A stretch of DNA of 20,000 nt from an uncultured virus (IMG/VR IMGVR_UViG_3300025570_000010). Taxonomy: Duplodnaviria; Heunggongvirae; Uroviricota; Caudoviricetes; Schitoviridae. The notes under the pieces are model-generated. The model worked only from the letters and a program-made list of their open reading frames with translations. It had not been told where the DNA came from and ran no database searches. The stretch lies in the IMG/VR virus record IMGVR_UViG_3300025570_000010, one strand, 5' to 3'. Shown piece after piece: positions 3,059 to 17,452 of the stretch. Position numbers and translations under genes: made by a program. The stretch's first letter is position 1; each line of letters begins with the position of its first letter.

Positions 3059-5254
3059 TTAGGTCATCTTTGCAGCGACCGATTTCAGAATAGTCAACTC
3101 GACCTCGTCCTTTTTCAGGGGACTTGGCGACTGCTCATTGAGCGTGTTGACCTTGCCTTTGATCACATCGTAGCTGGCCCCTGCATCCTTCAGCATCATT
3201 GCAAAATTGAGCAGGTTGTTGTTTCTATTCCCAACTTCCATGTTGTTCAAGAACCAACGTTCGAGGTGATCCAAACGTCCCAGATCAGCTACCTGTGCGG
3301 TGTACTCACTGTTCTGTTTGGTTTTCGGAATGAACGGCAACACGTTGACGAGGTTCGGGCCTTTGTGAACAAAGACTTGCGAATTCTCATGTGTCATCCA
3401 TTTCTTGGACCGCTGGTTTGCGGACCCATCTGACTTGAATGGCAGCCAAAGAAGGAAGCTATCCACGAAGTCCCGATAGTCTGCTTTGTCCAGCTTCAGA
3501 TTATAGTTTGCTGGCATGATCAGACGGAACCGGTGCTCTTCGTCAGTGTGACGTTTGGTTGTTGCGGTCGTGAACGTGTAGTCCTTCATCAGCTCATGGA
3601 GAGCCTCAAGACGGATGCCGTAGCTCAGGATCTTTCCATCCTTATCACGCTCATGACCATCAATATCCACCACAAGACAATTGAAACCTTCGATGACATT
3701 GTCTTCCGACCGGTGCTCTTTGTCGAAGTGGTGGTTACACCAATGCATCCCCGGTGCAGCCAACAGCTTTGGAAGGCTGTCGAATGGTTTCTGCATTGGA
3801 GAATAGTCGGAAGCGAAGTGATCAGAGAAGCTGAAGCTGATCTTGTTCAGATCGGTCTCCTCTAGGGTTGAACCAGTGAAGAAATCAACTCCGCTGATCA
3901 CGTTCTTCTTGATGACAACGTGGTTGCCCACGCCCCATGCCATTGCGAGATCCATAATCTCCCGACGAGGTGTCGTGGAGGATGGATAATATGGCAGATC
4001 TTCAACCAGATCAGCATGGGTCAAGGTCACGCCTGACTCAGCGATATACTTCGCCAGACGAACGAAATTCCGTTCCCTCTTGAGAAGGGTCTGGAACGAT
4101 GCTCCACTTTCTTCAGCAACCTTGAATGCCTGCCGGAGGTTCTTCTTGGTGATGTCCGAGGACTCGTCCAAGAAGGCATAGATTCCAGCGAGCTTGAGGG
4201 CTTTGAAGTACCGGTGAGACAGTTCAGCCTTCCGGACAACCTCGTGCTCAGGCAGAGAGTTGGCTACCGTTTCACAGTAGAGACGATAGGAGATCAGTTC
4301 GACACCAACCTCCTTTGGCACGTCGATCTTCAGATTGAAGAAACGAGTGTCAGCGAACTTGGCCAGTTTTTGCTTCCAGTTTAGGAGAGCCTGTGACCGG
4401 TTCTTGGACACCAACCCGTTGTAAACATCTTCAGGGTTGATGGTGGGAGAGAAAGTTTCAGGCTTCCCCATCCCGAAGAAACACCTCCGAGCGTACCCAG
4501 TCTCAAGGAAGGAATAGAACTCCTCCTCAGTCTTGGATCCGTCGAAGAGTTTCGACGTGGTTCCGAACATGAGCATGTTGGCAGGGGTTGCCCCGACCAA
4601 ATCAATACCCCGCTCGTTGTCCGTGGTGTTCTTCACCAGTTTGGTTTTGATCCGGCCTAAGTCGTATAGCTCAAGGAGGATGTTGATCACCTCCGTGTTG
4701 CCTATGATATTGGAACCGATCTCATCCATTTGGAAATTGATTGAACCAGCACGAGCAAGGAGCAGCTTGTAACGTAGCTGCTTCACCGCTGGGCCAGTAC
4801 CGGAGTCAAAGATGAAAGGAGCATGCCCCTGACGCTTAAAATCAGCCTCCAGGAGCTTCTTCTCATCATCTTCGCTTCCGGACTTTGCAGCAGCAATGTC
4901 TACAGCCAGATCATAGATCGAGGCTTCGGCAATTGCAGGAAAGACATGACCCGTGAAGATCTGCCGAAAGTCAGAAATGACATCTTCCATCAAGGACACA
5001 GAGTGACCTTTACCAAAGCCTGACGTTGCCAGAGCAATGGAATAGATATTGATTGGGATGTTCCCACGTTCCGGGCTGACAATCGTCGCTCGCATGGAGC
5101 TTGGAATCAGACTCAGAAAGTAGGCAACTTCAGCCTGGAAGAAGTCACGGTTGACGTTTCCTGTGCGGTGGCACAACAGATCAACCAGCTCCGACATGGC
5201 CGGGTGATGAGATTCTTTCTCAATCACACTGAGGTCATAGAGTGGTTTTGACAC
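3059..5254 (-). CDS. N4 gp43-like DNA primase (P-loop N-terminal region, primase-like centre, PriCT-like C-terminus)
   Basis: ATSGFGKG P-loop and MDEIG; VVDID...TKRH...HRFRL; C-terminal GNRNNNL; SD AAGGAG upstream. Confidence 0.85.
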   Translation of the reverse strand: MSKPLYDLSVIEKESHHPAMSELVDLLCHRTGNVNRDFFQAEVAYFLSLIPSSMRATIVSPERGNIPINIYSIALATSGFGKGHSVSLMEDVISDFRQIFTGHVFPAIAEASIYDLAVDIAAAKSGSEDDEKKLLEADFKRQGHAPFIFDSGTGPAVKQLRYKLLLARAGSINFQMDEIGSNIIGNTEVINILLELYDLGRIKTKLVKNTTDNERGIDLVGATPANMLMFGTTSKLFDGSKTEEEFYSFLETGYARRCFFGMGKPETFSPTINPEDVYNGLVSKNRSQALLNWKQKLAKFADTRFFNLKIDVPKEVGVELISYRLYCETVANSLPEHEVVRKAELSHRYFKALKLAGIYAFLDESSDITKKNLRQAFKVAEESGASFQTLLKRERNFVRLAKYIAESGVTLTHADLVEDLPYYPSSTTPRREIMDLAMAWGVGNHVVIKKNVISGVDFFTGSTLEETDLNKISFSFSDHFASDYSPMQKPFDSLPKLLAAPGMHWCNHHFDKEHRSEDNVIEGFNCLVVDIDGHERDKDGKILSYGIRLEALHELMKDYTFTTATTKRHTDEEHRFRLIMPANYNLKLDKADYRDFVDSFLLWLPFKSDGSANQRSKKWMTHENSQVFVHKGPNLVNVLPFIPKTKQNSEYTAQVADLGRLDHLERWFLNNMEVGNRNNNLLNFAMMLKDAGASYDVIKGKVNTLNEQSPSPLKKDEVELTILKSVAAKMT

Positions 5255-5265
5255 GGGGTGTCTCC

Positions 5266-6264
5266 TTATGTTCGACTTCCATCGTCGTGGAAGTAGTTTT
5301 TGCGTTGTTCACAAACCGAAAAAGCAGGACAGTATGGACATGCCTTGACTTCACCAGGGACGGTGACGACTGCGCCTTTGCCTTTGTCCTTGAGCCAAAG
5401 CTGTGCATCAGCTTCATTGTCAAAGTTCTTCTGGCATTTACCACCGGCCTTGGCCGTTGATTCGTTGGCGTAGTATTTGTACTGAGGCTCGGACTGCCAC
5501 AGTTCTTTGTCAGTGCATTGCACCATCTTCTCTTGGCTCAGACCAGCATTCTGAATGATGTGGTCGATCTTGCCATTGACCCAATCCTCTGTCTCTTTCA
5601 GGGACAGCAGAGCGAACTCCTTGTGGGGTGTCCGGATCTGAGGGTATTTGGGATCAGCGGTGCGATACTTGACCCAGTCTGTGAAGATGAATTGAATCCG
5701 CATCACATCATCTCGGATCAGGTCCGGCATGATCCAGCGATACATGGAACCCTGGAGAATGTAGTCTTCGTCTTTGTTCCCAGAAGTCCAAGCAAATGTG
5801 CTGGTGGATTTGAAATCCCGATAGGCTTGGCCGATCAGAAAGTCGAGCTGACCGGTGATGACCAGATCCCGGAATTGCTTGTAGCCACGGATCTCCAGAT
5901 AGATAGGGATCTCGTCGTCTTTCAGCTTCTTGGGATCCGGATTGATCCGGATTTTGTCGATGACCTTCTGAGGGTAGTGCAGCTTACGCATGGCCAACTG
6001 CCAGTTACCTTCGGTCCAGGCACGCTCGATCGAGTCATGGAGACCATGACCCATACGGGAAGCGATGATGTCTGAGAGATCCATCTCTTCCATGGTTTGA
6101 TCAACCTTACGCTTGAGAATGAGCTGACGAGTCGGCTTCATCAAGGTGGTCACAGAGATCAATTCCCCTGGAGGAGCTTCAGCAGCTCCAGATTTGTAAC
6201 CGTCTTGCAGCAGCCAAACGGCCAAGGGCAAGTCGATCTTGTGATTATTGGTTATTTTAACCAT
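5266..6264 (-). CDS. PD-(D/E)XK (Cas4-like) exonuclease, N4 gp42-like
   Basis: H...E...GQLD...DFKST motif and C-terminal CPYC...C cluster. I moved the start to the ATG at 6264, which has a GGAG SD and overlaps the polymerase stop. Confidence 0.85.
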   Translation of the reverse strand: MVKITNNHKIDLPLAVWLLQDGYKSGAAEAPPGELISVTTLMKPTRQLILKRKVDQTMEEMDLSDIIASRMGHGLHDSIERAWTEGNWQLAMRKLHYPQKVIDKIRINPDPKKLKDDEIPIYLEIRGYKQFRDLVITGQLDFLIGQAYRDFKSTSTFAWTSGNKDEDYILQGSMYRWIMPDLIRDDVMRIQFIFTDWVKYRTADPKYPQIRTPHKEFALLSLKETEDWVNGKIDHIIQNAGLSQEKMVQCTDKELWQSEPQYKYYANESTAKAGGKCQKNFDNEADAQLWLKDKGKGAVVTVPGEVKACPYCPAFSVCEQRKNYFHDDGSRT

Positions 6265-7003
6265 TGAGTTTCTCCAGGTGTTTGCCGATTGCTTTTTGGA
6301 CATCGGCTATGGTTGCATTTGCAGGGATGGTCATCTCTTCCTTCCAGTTGGGATAGAAGATCGACAGCTCCCCAGACATCTTGATGTGCTCATTTTGGAT
6401 GGCAGGATCTTCTTGCCAACTCACGGCTTTCACCATGTGTTTGTTTGTGTAAAGCAAGACTTCCATGTCATCTCTGATGAGCATGTATCCAGCGTCATGG
6501 ATCTGAGCACACGGTTTGATGTCCAAACGATGTGGTCCTTTTCGGACAGTAGAAAGGAACTCAGAACCGGCACGAGAATTCAACATGCAGTATGATTGTC
6601 CAAGGGCATTACCTGCTGTACGGCCCTCAGCGGCTGCCTCATACGGTGTCTTGCTGGTTCCCAGCACAACCTGCTTCAGCAGGGGAGTCCGCAATCTGAG
6701 ACCAAAAGCAAGGGTGACGTAGCCATCCTTACAGGCTTGTTCCAATTTATCTGCAACCCACTTGTCAGAGACGTGGTACAGATTGTGATAGCTGGCTTCG
6801 ATTGACTTAGCCAACTGCGAGGTGAAGCCACAGTTTGCCATCAGAGTCACATACGTCCCCTGATAGGTGAGAGCAAAGGTGGGAGCCTTCGACTCTTGTC
6901 TCCAGTGGGGGTAGAGCTTCTTGATGGAGTTGACACGAGCGACGTTGTGTTCGCTCGCGTCTACTGTGGAGACAGACTCGACTACTCCATTCAGTTTAAG
7001 CAT
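6257..7003 (-). CDS. Family A DNA polymerase, C-terminal fragment (motifs B and C)
   Basis: RQESKAPTFALTYQG (motif B), GYVTLAFG, NALGQS, QIHDA (motif C). Confidence 0.92.
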   Translation of the reverse strand: MLKLNGVVESVSTVDASEHNVARVNSIKKLYPHWRQESKAPTFALTYQGTYVTLMANCGFTSQLAKSIEASYHNLYHVSDKWVADKLEQACKDGYVTLAFGLRLRTPLLKQVVLGTSKTPYEAAAEGRTAGNALGQSYCMLNSRAGSEFLSTVRKGPHRLDIKPCAQIHDAGYMLIRDDMEVLLYTNKHMVKAVSWQEDPAIQNEHIKMSGELSIFYPNWKEEMTIPANATIADVQKAIGKHLEKLNG

Positions 7004-7199
7004 CGCCTACTACAGCAGCTTTAACAGCCCACATGCTGAAGTCTTCCAGTTTGGTCAGTGCTACAGAACGACGACGACCGTTGGGAATATTGTCGATGAT
7101 ATATTGCTCCATATCAACGACAGCATTTTTAATACCATCAACAGTTTGGTTGTTGCTTGGATTAAATTTGGGATCGGTTACACTCATTGGTTCACTCAT
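6996..7199 (-). CDS. Acb2/Tad1-like helical hairpin protein (putative anti-defence nucleotide sponge)
   Basis: FNPS...VDGIK...GRRRSVALTKLEDFSMWAVKAA resembles the Acb2/Tad1 hairpin signature (R-x-x-S/A-x-A-x-T-K-L-E-x-x-x-M-W). It overlaps both polymerase fragments. Confidence 0.7.
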   Translation of the reverse strand: MSEPMSVTDPKFNPSNNQTVDGIKNAVVDMEQYIIDNIPNGRRRSVALTKLEDFSMWAVKAAVVGDA

Positions 7200-9271
7200 T
7201 TGTTGAGTTGGGCAAACAGCTCATGTCCGAGCAGTTTTTGACCCTGATATTCTATCTCCTCATTGCTGTGGAAATAGATCTGTTTCCCATCGACGATTGC
7301 CTTGTAGGCAGTAGCTCCATCAGGGAGCATCTCAATGTCTGGCATGTGCTCTTTGAAGTAAGCCAATGCACGAAGACAGTGTCCGTCGAACCCATCAGAA
7401 TACACCTTGATCTTCTCTGGATCCTTGGTGGTCACTGCTGAAATTTTGTCCTCCAACGAATCGAAGTCCAAACCCACAAACAGCCATCCGGGAGGTGCCT
7501 CAAAACACTCTTTGATGAGCTTGGCAAGTCTTTGTTTGACCTTTGTGGAACCAGCAGAAGGGATGTTCTGTAGGTTGGGGTTGTTACTGGAAAGCCTACC
7601 AGATGCAGTGCCACCCAGCCGGAAGTTTCCGAACAGGTAATGCCATCCATCGTTACCCTTAACGGCTTTAAGGAATGCCGGAAGAAACGTAGAGAGGATG
7701 ATTGCACTGGCTTTGAACTCGATCAGGATCTCCAGAAACCGAATCACTTCGGGATCTTTGGTGTGGTTGATCAGCTTCTCAAGCGTCTCAGCTCCCGTTG
7801 CAGGTTGCTTGGTGTCCGTGTAGTCGAGGACTGGGAGACCCAGGAAATCCTCGGAATACAGGAAGCGTTGGAGCTGTTTAGAGCTGCCAGGATTGAACTT
7901 GACAACGGTGTCTTTTGTAGAACCAAGATCTGCCTTGGTGATCTGCTTGGTTTTGAGTTTGGCATTCTTCTCTATCACCTTTTCGTCTTTGAGTGTGTCT
8001 ATATAGGACCAGACGATTTGCAGATTGTTCATCCGTGCTAAGTTTCCATCCGACTCTTTGTTGAGCTGCTTGTCCAAGGCTTTAACCTTGGCCATGTTCA
8101 GGGGCATCCCTGTGAGCTGCATCTGAATGATGTCGATCACTGCTGGACGGAAAAGCGTCTGGTATGGTTCATCCTGAAGATCGGCAAGCATGATCGGCAA
8201 GTTTTTCTTGTAGACGTACCATGTGGAAAGTCCGTCGATCAGGTTGTACCGGAGCAAATCCGGAAGAGCGATCAGCCTGATGTCATGGATGTCTTCCTGA
8301 GCATAGTTCCCAGCAAACTCCTGAGCCTGTGTCTTGAGACCCAGCTCATTTCCTGCACAGGAATTGGTGGCCAGATAAGTGATGATCTGTGTGCAGTCCC
8401 AATCTTTCAGCATCACTTCCAGACCTTCAAGGAGACCCTTTTGATCTAGGATGTGATCCATAAACAGTTGATAAACAAGGACATACACGTCGTAACAGAT
8501 GTTGTGGTAGATCATCTTCCGCTTGAAATTGTAGAAGAAATCTCTGAGCAGTTGACGAATAACAGGGTTCTCAACACGACCAGATTTCTGACCCTCCTTC
8601 CCGATGGACGTAGAGTCCACTGCGAAAGCAATGCCCTCGTGTTCATTCCAACAGAAGGTGATCGTGCCAATCCCAGCATCGTAATGCTTCAGGTCAAAGC
8701 CTTCGATGTCACATGTGAGATCACAATCCATCTCCAGTAGTTTGTTCAACCACTTGGCAATACCAGTTGGCCCCACAGGGTAATCAGCGAACTTGATGAT
8801 GTTCGATCCCACCACAGTGGAGTTACCTCTGGCCCATCGTTTGGTGGACTCCAGAGCCATCCCGATCTTTGCCTTCATCTTGTCAGGGTCATAGAAGACC
8901 CGGCCATAGTTGGGGCAGTAGGTGATCGTGAAGTCTGTATCATACTCTGATATGAAGAAGTCCCCAATGGTGGCATCGGTCTTGGCCTTCTTGGACAGGA
9001 TCTTGAAGTAGTCCGGCTGTGTAACGACAAGCATCTCAATGCCTGCTGCCTTGAGGTTGGGCAACAGGTCATCGAGATACTCTTTCATGTCGGCAGCCGA
9101 GTTCTTCTTCTTGGTTCCATCCATGAAGAGGTCAGCGATCATGACACTCTCACCCAGAGCCAGAAGGTGAGGCTGGTAGTAATGCTTCTGCACCTCCGCT
9201 GTCTGGATACGTGGAACCAGGATACAGATCCTGGGATCCTTTGCAGAGTTGCCGATGATCTCATATTTCAT
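7196..9271 (-). CDS. Family A DNA polymerase, N-terminal fragment (N-terminal domain, 3'-5' exonuclease, thumb, motif A)
   Basis: ExoI CDIEG, ExoII HNICYD, ExoIII YNLID, TASGRLSSNNPNLQNIP and motif A LDFDSLE. The start is set at ATG 9271 (AGGAAG SD). Confidence 0.92.
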   Translation of the reverse strand: MKYEIIGNSAKDPRICILVPRIQTAEVQKHYYQPHLLALGESVMIADLFMDGTKKKNSAADMKEYLDDLLPNLKAAGIEMLVVTQPDYFKILSKKAKTDATIGDFFISEYDTDFTITYCPNYGRVFYDPDKMKAKIGMALESTKRWARGNSTVVGSNIIKFADYPVGPTGIAKWLNKLLEMDCDLTCDIEGFDLKHYDAGIGTITFCWNEHEGIAFAVDSTSIGKEGQKSGRVENPVIRQLLRDFFYNFKRKMIYHNICYDVYVLVYQLFMDHILDQKGLLEGLEVMLKDWDCTQIITYLATNSCAGNELGLKTQAQEFAGNYAQEDIHDIRLIALPDLLRYNLIDGLSTWYVYKKNLPIMLADLQDEPYQTLFRPAVIDIIQMQLTGMPLNMAKVKALDKQLNKESDGNLARMNNLQIVWSYIDTLKDEKVIEKNAKLKTKQITKADLGSTKDTVVKFNPGSSKQLQRFLYSEDFLGLPVLDYTDTKQPATGAETLEKLINHTKDPEVIRFLEILIEFKASAIILSTFLPAFLKAVKGNDGWHYLFGNFRLGGTASGRLSSNNPNLQNIPSAGSTKVKQRLAKLIKECFEAPPGWLFVGLDFDSLEDKISAVTTKDPEKIKVYSDGFDGHCLRALAYFKEHMPDIEMLPDGATAYKAIVDGKQIYFHSNEEIEYQGQKLLGHELFAQLNK

Positions 9272-9361
9272 TTTCAACTTCCTACTTATTTTGTGACCAT
9301 CTCTTACCAAAGAGATATAACTACAGTTCAGCTTCACATGGTTTTAGCACATGAGTCGTAG

Positions 9362-9420
9362 GCGGGAATCGAACCCGCGTTCTACCAAGTCTCGGTCAAC
9401 GAAAGGGAATCGAACCCCTA
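9362..9420 (-). other. Two tandem tRNA T-arm-like hairpins (GGGTTCGATTCCC) without a recognisable full cloverleaf
   Basis: On the minus strand, AGGGG-TTCGATT-CCCTT and GCGGG-TTCGATT-CCCGC lie about 41 nt apart in the helicase-polymerase intergenic region. Confidence 0.6.
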
Positions 9421-9435
9421 CTCCGGTTTAGGCAT

Positions 9436-10704
9436 CTATGAAAAATACCTATCTGGAAGCTCTCCTCTGATGAAGAGGCGAGAACGTGGACGGGACAGTG
9501 CGACGTACTGGAGACGTGCTGTCTGTTCCTTGTTAGTGGACTTACCGATGTCGGCGAGGTCAACGATGACGGAGTCATAGGTAGACCCCTGAGCCTTGTG
9601 CGTGGTGGATGCACTGACCGAACGGAGATCAGGATACCCGTTCTTGATCTTGAAGAAACGTTCCCAACTCTTTGATTGAGAGTAGAAACGTAGGACAGCT
9701 TCACGATCATTGTGGTCTGCGAAGGCCGTTACCGAATAGGTAACACCCGAATTCACATCTTCCACATCCATCATGATCATCCGGATCTCTTCGCCACTGA
9801 CGAGAGATTTATCCAAGAAATCATCGGTGATCCGAACAACCCGGACAACTTGGTCCGTGTACAGTCGTTCTTTCCCCAGCAATTCAGCCGACGAGTTGTT
9901 CGAAAGAATTTCACCAACCTCATACGGCTCAGTGTAGGACCGGAGCTGTCGAATGAAGCTGTTGTACTGTATCACACGAGCATTTGTGTAAGAGAGTACA
10001 CGCTTGCTGGCGTTCTCGATGAGGAACTCACGTTCCAGAATACCTTTGAGAGTGGTGCCATCGACAAAGTCAATCACACCGGGGACTTCTTTGATCCGGG
10101 TGAACTTGCCAGTCAGAACAGTCTGCTTGGCCTGCTCACAGAGATCCATGAGAGCTTGTTGATCCTTATTCCGAACTGGGACAGTCAGATTTCCAGTATC
10201 CATCTTCTGAGAATAGATCGGAGAGATGTGTTCTTTGACAGGAGCCAACTGGTTTTTATCCCCTACGAACAACACCTTACAGGTCGAGTCGATACCTTTG
10301 TTGATGTATTTGAAGAGATCACTGTTCACCATCGAACACTCATCAACAATGATGAGAGTCCCACTGTGGACAACCCACCGTGGGGTAGGCACGATTTTGA
10401 CTGTGCCTGTGGAGAAATTTTCAGAGACTCGGAGGTTCATGTACGAATAGATCGTACCAATCTCTCCAGCTCTGTGAGTCATTGCGTCACTGAGGACGGC
10501 TGCTGCCTTGTTGGTTGTTGCTGTGATGGCAATGCTGTGCATCGTTTTGGTGGTCTGATGCTTCAGGATCCCATCAGCGATCTGGGAAATCAGAAAGGTT
10601 TTCCCCGTACCTGCACCACCGGATACGTCCATGAATTGATCGGGTCCGTTGATGAACTGGATGACTTTCATGAACACGGCTTGTTGGTCTTTATTAAGTG
10701 CCAT
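9436..10704 (-). CDS. SF1B Dda/RecD-like DNA helicase (N4 gp37-like)
   Basis: GGAGTGKT, IVDECSM, GDKNQL, TTHKAQGST, YVALSR. The start is set at ATG 10704 (TAAGGA SD). Confidence 0.92.
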   Translation of the reverse strand: MALNKDQQAVFMKVIQFINGPDQFMDVSGGAGTGKTFLISQIADGILKHQTTKTMHSIAITATTNKAAAVLSDAMTHRAGEIGTIYSYMNLRVSENFSTGTVKIVPTPRWVVHSGTLIIVDECSMVNSDLFKYINKGIDSTCKVLFVGDKNQLAPVKEHISPIYSQKMDTGNLTVPVRNKDQQALMDLCEQAKQTVLTGKFTRIKEVPGVIDFVDGTTLKGILEREFLIENASKRVLSYTNARVIQYNSFIRQLRSYTEPYEVGEILSNNSSAELLGKERLYTDQVVRVVRITDDFLDKSLVSGEEIRMIMMDVEDVNSGVTYSVTAFADHNDREAVLRFYSQSKSWERFFKIKNGYPDLRSVSASTTHKAQGSTYDSVIVDLADIGKSTNKEQTARLQYVALSRPRSRLFIRGELPDRYFS

Positions 10705-15550: not shown

Positions 15551-15627
15551 CTTAATTCTCCTACGAAGGTTAAATTTTCCCCAGATTTTGCTTGCACACA
15601 TTAGAACAAATAGAGAACGGGGTATTT

Positions 15628-15765
15628 AGTCTGGCCCCCTGCCTTGTCAGTCATCGGATTACTTTTTCGCTTATGTCCATGGAGCGACTAGCTGTCTTAT
15701 ACCGAGGGTGAGGGGTTGGAGCATGGACTAATCCGTTGCTGCCAAACTGGTTTCCGAAGAAACCA
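15628..15765 (-). ncRNA. Candidate structured RNA or 5' leader: cUUCGg hairpin plus a long nested rod
   Basis: GGUUUC-UUCG-GAAACC, then nested stems 15741-15748/15628-15635, 15729-15735/15655-15661 and 15722-15728/15675-15681. Confidence 0.5.
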
Positions 15766-15803
15766 AAAAAGAAAAACCCTACCGGATCTCTCCGATAGGG
15801 TTT
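15765..15803 (-). terminator. Rho-independent terminator
   Basis: AAACCCUAUCGGA-GAGA-UCCGGUAGGGUUU followed by UUCUUUUUU. Confidence 0.88.
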
Positions 15804-15990
15804 GGTCAGCTCCAGCAACTGTCAGAATCACGGATTAGCATCCGCTCCTTAACAGCGACTGGTCACTGTGATCAGGTATCCCAGTGCCAGCAAGTTCGCA
15901 CTAATGACAGTTTTGAGGCTGTCCTCTAGCCGCCTTCCACTGCTCCATGCAGGGCGCGAAAAACCGACTGGTCACTGAGAATGTGGAAGG
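15765..15990 (-). ncRNA. Candidate ~220-nt small RNA with a duplicated CAGUGACCAGUCG motif
   Basis: No ORF of 60 aa or more; bounded by a TTGACA promoter and a terminator; several stems; 13-nt direct repeat at 15856-15868 and 15965-15977. Confidence 0.55.
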
Positions 15991-15991
15991 T

Positions 15992-16020
15992 GACTTAGAT
16001 CAAGAGGGATCTTCTGTCAA
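15992..16020 (-). promoter_or_regulatory. Sigma70-like promoter
   Basis: TTGACA (16020-16015), 17-nt spacer, TAAGTC (15997-15992), immediately after an upstream terminator. Confidence 0.55.
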
Positions 16021-16030
16021 CTTAAAAACC

Positions 16031-16058
16031 AAGAAAAAGCCGGGGAAAGACCCCGGCT
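16031..16058 (-). terminator. Rho-independent terminator
   Basis: AGCCGGGG-UCUUU-CCCCGGCU followed by UUUUCUU, just after the 36-aa ORF. Confidence 0.88.
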
Positions 16059-16070
16059 GATTCCCTCTTG

Positions 16071-16181
16071 TCATTCCGCTGTGAACCAGCGTTCGTACAG
16101 GGCTTTGACCCAAGTCGGTTGAGGAAGAACGTTCCATCCGACGATGAGTCCTGCCCCGAAGAACAGGATTGCTTCGATCAT
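16071..16181 (-). CDS. 36-aa single-pass membrane peptide absent from the ORF track (MIEAILFFGAGLIVGWNVLPQPTWVKALYERWFTAE)
   Basis: ATGA overlap with the phosphoesterase stop; GAAAGG SD; followed directly by a terminator. Confidence 0.75.
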   Translation of the reverse strand: MIEAILFFGAGLIVGWNVLPQPTWVKALYERWFTAE

Positions 16182-17338
16182 AGGAATACCTTTCGTGGTT
16201 TGTCCTGAAGGAGTAGAGGCTTCAAGTTTACCTTTTTGCGGTCCACTTCGCCATCCTCTTTGTGCAGAGTGACTGCACAGATCCCTCCACGGGTGAAGAG
16301 ACCCTTCATTTGCGCCCAGTTGTTGGGTTTGGCCAAGGTCCGGAAGTGCTCTGCATCAGCCCCTACGAGCTGTTTTTGCTTGTCGTGGTGGACGTGAGCT
16401 GTCCAGATGAACCGCCAATACTTGGCCTTGGCCCATGCGTCTGGGAACTGGTCTGAGAAGACATCCTTGAGGCTTTCCCATTTGCATTTGTCCCCGTGGT
16501 GAGGGAACACAGCACACTTGCCCCAGGGAATCACACGGAAGTTGTCATCACTGACAACCACATTCACACGAGGATCGTCTTTGAAATGGGCATCCAGAGC
16601 CACCATGACACCGATATAAGCTGTTTCGTCATGGTTCCCCCGGAGAAGGTGGACTTCGACTTCCTGATGCTTCTGGAGGAGTAGACCGATGGTATAACGC
16701 ATGATGTTCATGGCATTGATCGTGTTGTCGAGATGGTTTTCCCGAATCACATCACATTCGTTGCCAGAAGCAGGAGTCAATCCTTTGTGATCATTGGCGT
16801 CCAAGAGGTCGCCCATGTCCAGTAGGACTGCTTTGTGAGCCAGAGGAAGATTGTGCATCAAGCGGGTGATTGCTGCATACACTGCGTCGAGGTACTTGGG
16901 ATCCCCGTATTGTCCGCCAACGTGAAGATCACACAGGGGGATGAAGTTGCAGAGGTCTTTGGGTAGCTCATAGGTGGGAGGAGGCGTAGGAGCGGCTCGT
17001 GGAGCCTGTGTGAGAGCGTCAATGAGGGTCTGTGCTACATCGACTGGTTCTTCTTCTTCTGGTTTGATCTGGTAGCGTACAGAGTTCCGTACAATCGTAC
17101 CATCAGAGAGGGTTTCCTGAACGATTCGCCAACCACCAGTGACAACCCTTCCACCCAGACCAGTTGCGTCCATTGCTGATTGAAGTCCGGGATCTGCCTC
17201 CTCGTAGACTAGAGCAGCTCTGATTGACTCGGTGATTGTGGAACGATGAACCCCGGCAATTTCGGCTACTTTGGAGAAGTTCTCGTCATGCTCACGCCAC
17301 AGTTTGAGACGTTCCGCTTGAATCGGAGTAATGGGCAT
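16178..17338 (-). CDS. Calcineurin-like metallophosphoesterase with an N-terminal HTH
   Basis: DLHVG, GDLLD, GNHD, HHGD and AHVHH motifs; FSKVAEIAGVHRSTI HTH; start at ATG 17338 (AAGGA SD). Confidence 0.85.
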   Translation of the reverse strand: MPITPIQAERLKLWREHDENFSKVAEIAGVHRSTITESIRAALVYEEADPGLQSAMDATGLGGRVVTGGWRIVQETLSDGTIVRNSVRYQIKPEEEEPVDVAQTLIDALTQAPRAAPTPPPTYELPKDLCNFIPLCDLHVGGQYGDPKYLDAVYAAITRLMHNLPLAHKAVLLDMGDLLDANDHKGLTPASGNECDVIRENHLDNTINAMNIMRYTIGLLLQKHQEVEVHLLRGNHDETAYIGVMVALDAHFKDDPRVNVVVSDDNFRVIPWGKCAVFPHHGDKCKWESLKDVFSDQFPDAWAKAKYWRFIWTAHVHHDKQKQLVGADAEHFRTLAKPNNWAQMKGLFTRGGICAVTLHKEDGEVDRKKVNLKPLLLQDKPRKVFL

Positions 17339-17386
17339 ATGGCCATCCTTACTTTTATTATAGAAAGATGTGGACAACCATTGGGT

Positions 17387-17440
17387 GAAACATACCGTGG
17401 TAAGAGACTCACACTAGGTGTGACTACCACGGTATGTTTC
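17387..17440. repeat. 16-bp perfect inverted repeat with an inner 6-bp hairpin
   Basis: GAAACATACCGTGGTA (17387-17402) / TACCACGGTATGTTTC (17425-17440), enclosing TCACAC-tag-GTGTGA. Confidence 0.85.
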
Positions 17441-17452
17441 TGCTTTCAAAGC

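Follow-up and report, generated by a model that had tools for sequence, protein, structure and literature searches.

The intergenic locus

The stretch of DNA analysed here, referred to as the window, comprises 20,000 nucleotides (nt) and corresponds to bases 30686-50685 of the 53,318-base IMG/VR record of an uncultured virus of the Schitoviridae (IMGVR_UViG_3300025570_000010), which is about 72% complete by the collection's own estimate. The genes of the window lie on the minus strand and together form a replication module, and within this module, upstream of the genes for a DprA-like protein and ribonucleotide reductase (RNR), we found a predicted non-coding RNA of about 220 nt, hereafter the element. 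Judged from its fold and its relatives, it looks like a real lineage-specific structured RNA element, encoded on the minus strand and belonging to an undescribed family in a small clade of uncultured N4-like phages.

When the 53-kb record was roughly tiled with open reading frames (ORFs), six gaps of more than 90 nt were left, the largest of which, at ~470 nt, holds the element and extends from the end of a small ORF at 16072 to the start of the next gene at 15601 (Table 1). Upstream lies a metallophosphatase/exonuclease-like gene followed by a 36-codon ORF, whose product, a hydrophobic peptide also kept in the related loci L005, L008, L007 and L032, is probably a real small membrane protein. 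An intrinsic terminator ends this unit and is kept in all nine aligned relatives (9/9). The genes 3' of the element encode proteins of 72 and 195 amino acids (aa), both of which matched PHROGs of unknown function and neither of which had a Pfam or PADLOC match.

A preliminary description of this region had proposed an ORF-free tract flanked by terminators, the second with a GAGA loop, and this outline held: both terminators were called, both on the minus strand, and the element contains no credible ORF. Eight ORFs of at least 20 aa, none longer than 55 aa, were judged not credible; they start mostly with GTG or TTG, and several cross the terminators. Nor is any ORF conserved across the relatives. 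A separate 11-codon ORF (MLIRDS...) in the second module was rejected as coding, its AUG being absent in L062 and L026.

The 13-nt motif CAGTGACCAGTCG, of which two copies had been reported, was indeed found exactly twice on the minus strand, and no further copy occurs in the 53,318-base record at up to one mismatch (reversed control, 0). Extension of the two copies gives a direct repeat of 21 nt, whose copies agree by 86% at a distance of 109 nt. A second direct repeat, of 12 nt, has its copies at 15893-15882 and 15818-15807, which agree by 83% at a distance of 75 nt.

Table 1. Features at the locus, with positions in the window.
Feature	Position	Strand	Remarks
Metallophosphatase/exonuclease-like gene	17377-16178	minus	upstream neighbour
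36-codon ORF (37 aa counting the stop)	16182-16072	minus	4-nt overlap with the exonuclease-like gene
Upstream intrinsic terminator	16058-16038	minus	8 pairs, 7 of them G-C, then U-tract
Candidate promoter region	16021-15991	minus	putative; TTGACA at 16021-16016, box TGATCTAAGTCA at 16002-15991
Predicted non-coding RNA, ~220 nt	15988-15766	minus	5' end placed from the putative promoter box; 3' end at the terminator U-tract
Module 1 (long)	15980-15879	minus	basal helix pairs 15980-15963 with 15891-15879
Motif copy 1, CAGUGACCAGUCG	15977-15965	minus	5' strand of the module 1 basal helix
Module 2, terminal (T) module	15868-15807	minus	helices P1 to P4; 108.9 bits with covariance model R1
Motif copy 2	15868-15856	minus	5' strand of the T-module basal helix
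Downstream intrinsic terminator	15803-15774	minus	GAGA tetraloop; U-tract to ~15766
Perfect hairpin GGUUUC-UUCG-GAAACC	15764-15749	minus	directly 3' of the terminator

The minus strand folds into tandem hairpin modules

Over 228 nt the minus strand folds at -95.0 kcal/mol, compared with -70.3 +/- 4.5 kcal/mol for shuffled sequences (z -5.5; 0 of 200 shuffles as good), while the plus strand reaches -81.9 kcal/mol (z -3.9), which is 13 kcal/mol worse. In the minimum-energy fold the RNA consists of two tandem hairpin modules and then the terminator hairpin, and the same module layout was obtained from separate minimum-energy folds of five homologous regions. The motif forms the 5' strand and the second direct repeat the 3' strand of a basal helix common to the modules, which reads 5'-CAGUG-A-CCARU-C-G with U-U-GYUGG-CACUG-3'. 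The 71-nt interior of module 1 is unconserved, and the interiors of the non-terminal modules in general (39-71 nt) have no detectable similarity to one another. The interior of the T-module, by contrast with these, is conserved, including an apical hairpin (15845-15830) that carries an invariant YUAAUCCG on its loop side, and the module has four invariant G.U pairs.

Because the preliminary description misread the fold, it also misread the way in which the motif is presented. It had placed both copies in unpaired segments, whereas they are paired in the minimum-energy fold and in every homologue, so that the idea of a sponge or guide displaying a single-stranded motif is not supported, this motif being one strand of a conserved helix. 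The helices it had proposed to close the two domains (CCUUCCAC/GUGGAAGG and AACUGUCA/UGACAGUU) can be formed in the window, but they are absent from all three relatives tested (L005, L062 and L026), and AACUGUCA/UGACAGUU is in competition with P2, a helix that has covariation in its favour.

An RNA with such hairpins might instead act by base-pairing, its CUAAU loops (of the YUNR type) or other exposed stretches pairing with a phage or host message, for instance the leader of the downstream operon. The invariance of YUAAUCCG in the T-module and the recurrence of CUAAU-type loops in other hairpins of L005 and L062 would suit a regulator of this sort, although YUAAUCCG lies mostly within the stem. 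Three perfect blocks of 9, 8 and 8 nt also connect the RNA, in antiparallel order, with the 170-nt downstream leader (15963-15942 and 15838-15830 versus 15736-15728 and 15685-15663, minus strand). Against their significance, hand arithmetic puts the chance expectation for stretches of these sizes at about 0.6 8-mers, the palindrome CATG is common to two of the blocks, one block stems from the hairpin's own palindrome, and by eye the leaders of L062, L026 and L005 lack the partner sequence. The complementarity may be a matter of chance or duplication, and a base-pairing regulator is in our view decidedly unlikely.

The 174 nt after the terminator fold in an ordinary manner (z -1.05; equalled by 27 of 200 shuffles). 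That this leader (15712-15615) holds the decayed remains of a third module was considered and rejected, MAFFT giving it no support beyond a CUAGUCGCU match.

Compensatory changes maintain the structure

The alignment of T-module and terminator comprised seven sequences, six of them distinct, from about four lineages. Standard pairs are formed in all 188 cells of a 35-pair structure (188/188), 13 of the 35 pairs change on both sides, and the observed values were reached in 0 of 500 column shuffles; when the 3' partners were slid by 1-3 columns as a control, only 33-47% of the cells paired. RNAalifold independently gave the same fold, with 32 pairs and 12 compensatory changes. Helix P2 occurs as four different sequences, all fully complementary, and the terminator stem covaries as well (6 of 11 pairs changed on both sides), while the four G.U pairs of the T-module never change and would be C/A mismatches on the other strand. 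The alignment of homologues, suggested earlier as a check, has thus brought out both conservation and covariation: the secondary structure is conserved with compensatory changes and is specific to the minus strand.

For the basal helix we compared eight distinct modules from five loci, that is, from five related uncultured phage contigs. The core CCARU/GYUGG is paired in 40 of 40 cells, and a C/U mismatch with an adjoining G.U pair is found in every module (8/8 for each). At the R-Y pair, four modules have G-C and the other four A-U, and both kinds occur inside L005, where modules 1 and 2 have A-U and module 3 has G-C. The two pairs after the G.U are always formed, with four pair types, and the lower stem of 3-8 pairs is set off by a single bulged A or, in two T-modules, by a GA/A loop. 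In module 1 of the window the bulged A lies at 15972, and the C/U mismatch brings together 15966 and 15892.

The same observations bear on the idea that the sequence functions as DNA, whether as a replication origin, a set of operators, a cruciform or single-stranded DNA hairpin like the N4-type promoters, or a miniature inverted-repeat mobile element. This idea draws on the position of the element in the largest non-coding gap, within the replication module, on its four CAGNG-CCAG-like cores in direct and inverted orientation, and on the use of DNA hairpin promoters by N4-like phages (PMC9163698). It has difficulty with the module arms, which change together while modules of the same genome differ (A-U versus G-C in L005), and with the four fully complementary versions of P2; moreover the invariant G.U pairs and the strand asymmetry in folding energy favour a minus-strand RNA, the copies are not dispersed, and the T-module with its terminator has a G+C content of 0.46-0.50 and hence is not A+T-rich. 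Since the arms co-vary within a module, the modules differ within a genome, and the wobbles fit the minus strand only, the pairing is, as judged from these alignments, the intramolecular pairing of an RNA, as opposed to binding sites of a protein on DNA. We consider a DNA-level element very unlikely.

Module number varies at a single locus in related phages

Using the neighbouring exonuclease-like protein as bait we collected 18 viral and 45 metagenome loci, and the 3' half of the RNA was found by nhmmer in four further sequence groups: L005, L023 and L024 (E 2e-15); L062 (E 2e-12); L026 to L029 (E 2e-7 to 9e-7); and L003, L004, L006 and L046 (E 4e-6). Each locus carries between one and three modules. 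L005 has three and an extra domain, L062 has the same extra domain and a T-module, and the L026/L003 group has a T-module and an orphan 3' arm, while in L008 (64% protein identity) a single long module stands 17 nt ahead of the ribosome-binding site of the following gene and lacks a terminator. Both closer and more distant relatives (L031, L032, L007, L009 and L010) carry ordinary genes at the locus instead. In L005 (4050-4070), module 2 directly follows ATGAAACGTAAACC, which makes up the opening five codons of a gene preserved whole in L007 (compare 3705-3720), and therefore the modules seem to have replaced a gene body.

In four virus records the modules are confined to this one locus (2, 3, 1 and 1 copies; reversed control, 0), on which ground a dispersed palindromic or miniature inverted-repeat element was rejected. 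The surroundings of the modules are less constant. The downstream gene codes for the 72-aa protein in the window and for one of 71 aa in L008; in L005, L026 and L062 its product is a GHKL-ATPase protein. In these last three loci the modules come after a small perfect hairpin (ATGCA-N4-TGCAT), a Shine-Dalgarno sequence and a mini-ORF that ranges from 1 to 24 codons. Shine-Dalgarno sequences with ATG-TGA 'start-stop' mini-ORFs were seen before the RNA in L005 (3880-3895) and L036 (3845-3855).

Both modules also occur in variant form on a DNA contig with an estuary label (X12), which over 15798-15982 differs by 17 letters and 6 gaps; of the 15 differences that were itemised none falls in either motif copy, and eight further differences were not itemised. 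In IMG/VR the exact two-motif pattern had no match, a module pattern matched one contig of the same clade and twice, by chance, antisense in a capsid gene (L068 and L069), and T-module patterns matched the same two contigs only. A blastn search with the 641-nt region against 50,697 phage records gave no match, and neither of two exact module patterns matched in a bacterial genome collection, where diverged relatives would escape exact patterns.

Covariance model R1 scored 104-117 bits on its training loci and above 30 bits nowhere else in 60 sources, its weak matches being mostly terminators. Stretches directly after the exonuclease-like gene in L009 and L010 scored 24-26 bits and may be distant relatives. 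R1 had no match in the complete genomes of Roseobacter phage RD-1410W1-01 and of LUZ7 (the latter at E <= 0.001), and upstream of the DprA-like and RNR genes RD-1410W1-01 has rIIA, rIIB and, 80 nt past rIIB, an endonuclease gene, with no such RNA.

Other strongly paired, terminator-ended non-coding stretches were noticed in more distant relatives (L036 3870-4030 and L009 3960-4110), and the neighbourhood may be a general small-RNA hot spot of these phages. The L036 stretch and the interior of the L008 module are alike over ~22 nt (UAUGAGG..AUAAUCC.UUA); since nhmmer queries with module 1, the L008 module and the L036 RNA each retrieved themselves only, this resemblance stays anecdotal.

Other genes and features of the window

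By matches to PHROG and Pfam, the replication module encodes a RusA-like resolvase, a single-stranded DNA-binding protein (SSB), a Sak4-like annealing protein, a primase, an exonuclease, a family A DNA polymerase split over two ORFs, a Dda-like helicase, RNR, a DprA-like protein and an HNH endonuclease. The primase shares 73% identity with its counterpart in RD-1410W1-01 (Schitoviridae, Rhodovirinae), after which come matches in other N4-like roseophages. The remainder of the 53-kb record holds N4-type structural genes and one ORF of 3,661 codons, which is taken to be the virion RNA polymerase.

The two polymerase ORFs (6257-7003 and 7196-9337, minus strand) are separated by 192 nt. The helicase and polymerase genes are separated by 98 nt (9338-9435), where ARAGORN made its only call in the window, an 87-nt tRNA-Gly(CCC) at 9355-9441; this gap contains two T-arm-like stretches, GGGGTTCGATTCCC and GCGGGTTCGATTCCCGC; it may hold a tRNA and a tRNA fragment, or an unusual tRNA. 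A long near-perfect hairpin lies in the 75-nt gap between the 719-aa and exonuclease-like genes (17378-17452, minus strand), with a 16-bp outer stem (GAAACATACCGTGGTA / TACCACGGTATGTTTC), an inner TCACAC/GTGTGA hairpin and no U-tract.

Candidate promoter and transcript boundaries

The TTGACA-17-TAAGTC promoter of the preliminary description is present as letters, with a perfect -35 hexamer, but its -10 hexamer TAAGTC (15997-15992) agrees with TATAAT at two of six positions and lacks the final T, and a consensus scan did not call it. The surrounding box TGATCTAAGTCA reads as an extended -10 (TGnTCTAAG). The 12-mer TGATCTAARTCA at this place occurs exactly twice in the 53-kb record, where ~0.01 exact copies are expected (hand arithmetic), both times on the minus strand: just before the RNA (16002-15991) and just before the ribosome-binding site of the RNR gene (13202-13191). 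The 12-mer resembles an extended -10 box or, with its TGAT..ATCA dyad, an operator, and its sharing between the two upstream regions would suggest that the element and the RNR unit are co-regulated. X12 keeps the 12-mer while its flanks differ, and L005 has TGATCTTAT at the matching place; because of the box and of these two observations, a transcription start near 15988 is plausible.

Beyond the downstream terminator, the perfect hairpin at 15764-15749 may, by analogy, be a hairpin-type promoter or mark the start of the next transcription unit. Such hairpins recall the hairpin-type middle promoters of the N4-like phage LUZ7 (PMC9163698). Similar small perfect hairpins between a terminator and the next gene were seen in L009 and L010 (GGTTCG-CTT-CGAACC, about 3740-3760), and L026 has an ATGCA-ATAC-TGCAT perfect hairpin at about 3825-3840, with a terminator before it and a gene after it.

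The order of promoter-like box, structured RNA, terminator and downstream genes on one strand would also be that of a riboswitch or attenuator leader, in which a sensed ligand or protein controls read-through of the downstream terminator. Three different genes follow the RNA in the window, in L005, L026 and L062, and in L008, which is not what such control would predict, and a separate perfect hairpin and a 170-nt leader come after the terminator. Nor was an anti-terminator pairing seen, by eye only, or a riboswitch matched in Rfam. An attenuator is very improbable, a shade more so than a DNA-level element.

The modules may also be cis-acting punctuation in longer messages, placed in untranslated regions at the 3' or 5' end, where they would serve for processing, as stability barriers or to insulate transcription units from one another, comparable to the RNase III hairpins between T7 genes. 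The L008 module, so close to a ribosome-binding site and with no terminator, speaks for this role, as do the hairpin, Shine-Dalgarno sequence and mini-ORF ahead of the modules in L005, L026 and L062, the fluid module number with its orphan 3' arm in L026, and a weakly similar hairpin with a GGAGARAUCC terminator in the 24-26-bit stretches of L009 and L010. Terminator read-through and complex operons are reported for LUZ7 (PMC9163698). In the window itself the arrangement is a different one, with strong terminators both before and after the RNA and with the promoter-like box common with the RNR gene lying between the upstream terminator and the RNA; furthermore there is one locus per genome, unlike elements that recur between many genes. 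Punctuation is a possibility to be taken seriously, even if we hold it to be unlikely. That the element stands alone, as first described, is plausible for the window with its terminators and does not extend to L008; from the leader position there and the mini-ORFs in L005, L026 and L062 it follows that modules can live inside other transcripts.

Interpretation

The observed structure, covariation, strand specificity, restriction to one clade and one locus, and absence of coding are best accommodated, with a rough probability of 0.5, by a separate small RNA with a repeated helix that a protein recognises or cleaves, an interpretation in which independent transcription, a protein partner and an effect on infection are supposed. 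We infer sequence-specific recognition of the helix, be it by a protein, a nuclease or a tertiary contact, because its core is nearly invariant although a plain stem could drift as P2 does. The irregular basal helix would be recognised in both shape and sequence by an RNA-binding protein or by a ribonuclease specific for double strands, and the transcript would then be a multivalent binder of this factor or a substrate cut into separate hairpins. The terminal module and the terminator would form a stable functional core, with the terminal module kept constant, while the interiors of the other modules would be free to vary and the number of modules to range from one to three.

Several points weigh against the small-RNA interpretation. 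The covariation comes from about four independent lineages of one narrow, closely related clade, and the fixity of the helix sequence could be partly due to recent duplication. No candidate binding protein or nuclease for the helix was found in the 53-kb record, which is 72% complete. The sigma-70-like promoter is weak, having escaped the consensus scan, and its TTGACA is not present in L005, L026 or L062. A search of sequencing runs returned 21 that match part of the stretch (4 of 22 listed were compared), and the only RNA-labelled run, stored as contigs, which cannot show RNA ends, covers 16047-16197, that is, the upstream small ORF, outside the element. The 5'-leader position of the L008 module, with no terminator, and the Shine-Dalgarno sequence and mini-ORF that precede the RNA in L005, L026 and L062 count on the same side.

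A more speculative and rather unlikely extension would make the basal helix a cassette signal, by which the phage duplicates, swaps and discards 'cargo' hairpins at one hot spot. A helix-specific nuclease or binding protein would release a changing set of small RNAs from one non-coding transcript, much as processing enzymes recognise CRISPR repeats or the stems of microRNA precursors, and the conserved terminal module would be its constant stabilising end. The one to three modules, their unrelated interiors, the orphan arm of L026 and the gene remnant in L005 fit this extension without proving it. What weight is left is spread over the base-pairing, DNA-level and attenuator readings and the host-defence decoy discussed below.

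Knowledge of structured non-coding RNAs in lytic phages is poor, and the small RNA proposed here is of unusual design, in that an irregular helix of fixed sequence is repeated while the interiors vary, which offers a concrete handle for experiments and might reveal a new interaction between RNA and protein during phage infection. Its interest is limited by the narrow clade of uncultured phages in which it occurs and by expression and function being supposed from sequence. In the N4-like phage literature found, the only counterparts were unexplained small transcripts in LUZ7.

Comparison with known families and systems

That the family would not be recognised had been anticipated, and Rfam 15 indeed gave no match in the whole window at gathering thresholds, the best sub-threshold match on the element being rnk_pseudo (21.8 bits, where 55 are required). 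For the corresponding regions of L005 and L036 there was sub-threshold noise only, even at permissive thresholds. ARAGORN found no tRNA or tmRNA at the locus and made no call in L005, L008, L062, L026, L036 or L009, and Tandem Repeats Finder reported no rows at a score of at least 30. Of the seven neighbouring proteins submitted to PADLOC, six had no match and the seventh matched only a homing-endonuclease (HEase) model. A literature search with the letters of the motif found no match, and searches on Schitoviridae small RNAs (sRNAs) and roseophage transcriptomes found nothing relevant.

These results bear on a possible host-defence decoy, that is, a mimic of a type III antitoxin ('pseudo-ToxI') or an RNA anti-CRISPR that mimics a repeat. 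In their order, the putative promoter, repeated units and terminator superficially resemble type III antitoxin arrays, but there is no array for Tandem Repeats Finder to report, since only arms of 13-21 nt repeat, 109 nt apart; the HEase match is the sole PADLOC result; and because both module patterns had no bacterial match, no host RNA to mimic was found. The antitoxin mimic and guide-like RNA of the preliminary description found no support, no exact tandem array, toxin- or defence-like neighbour or nuclease partner having been found. Two specific candidates were rejected: a CRISPR mini-array or repeat mimic, the repeats being 13-21 nt at 109-nt spacing and not regular units of about 28-37 nt, with module patterns absent from the bacterial collection; and a ToxN/AbiQ-like toxin gene directly downstream, where the proteins of 72 and 195 aa gave no match in Pfam or PADLOC. 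A decoy is the least probable of the readings considered.

Among known systems, the type III antitoxin arrays (ToxI and its relatives, and phage pseudo-ToxI) consist of a promoter, repeated RNA units and an intrinsic terminator. The element has this order if its putative promoter is counted; it differs in having no exact tandem repeat and no endoribonuclease toxin gene downstream, and in repeating helix arms only. The REP/BIME and ERIC sequences are transcribed palindromic intergenic repeats that form RNA hairpins and vary in copy number. Like them, the modules are imperfect palindromes that fold, as predicted, into RNA hairpins within transcripts; unlike them, they occur at one locus per genome, are phage-specific, and end in a terminal module with a conserved complex interior.

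The protein-sponge sRNAs CsrB, RsmY and RsmZ carry a GGA element in loops, repeated over hairpins. Here too one element is repeated over several hairpins of an RNA that ends at a terminator, and varies in copy number among relatives, but in place of a GGA in loops we find a double-stranded helix with fixed non-Watson-Crick features, and no Rfam match. The intergenic RNase III processing hairpins of T7 are irregular, with mismatches or bulges, and have conserved stem sequences and helix-specific recognition by a protein. They share with the modules irregular stems, apparently read as RNA, that are conserved between copies; they lie between many genes and are cleaved, whereas the modules lie at one locus, have variable interiors of 37-71 nt and are only proposed to be cleaved.

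The nearest precedent, functional rather than by homology, appears to be a set of RNAs from LUZ7. In that phage (Putzeys et al. 2022, PMC9163698), the gap between orf69 and orf70 gives rise to sRNA1-3, non-coding transcripts of less than 250 nt found late in infection, and one of them apparently arises by processing. These RNAs resemble the element in belonging to an N4-like phage, in being non-coding, intergenic, shorter than 250 nt and terminator-ended, in lying among replication-region genes and in having no assigned function. They differ in that their region comes after the SSB module and borders on the gene for the virion RNA polymerase, whereas the element lies upstream of the DprA-like and RNR genes, and in that they were seen in RNA data, whereas the element is known from its sequence alone.

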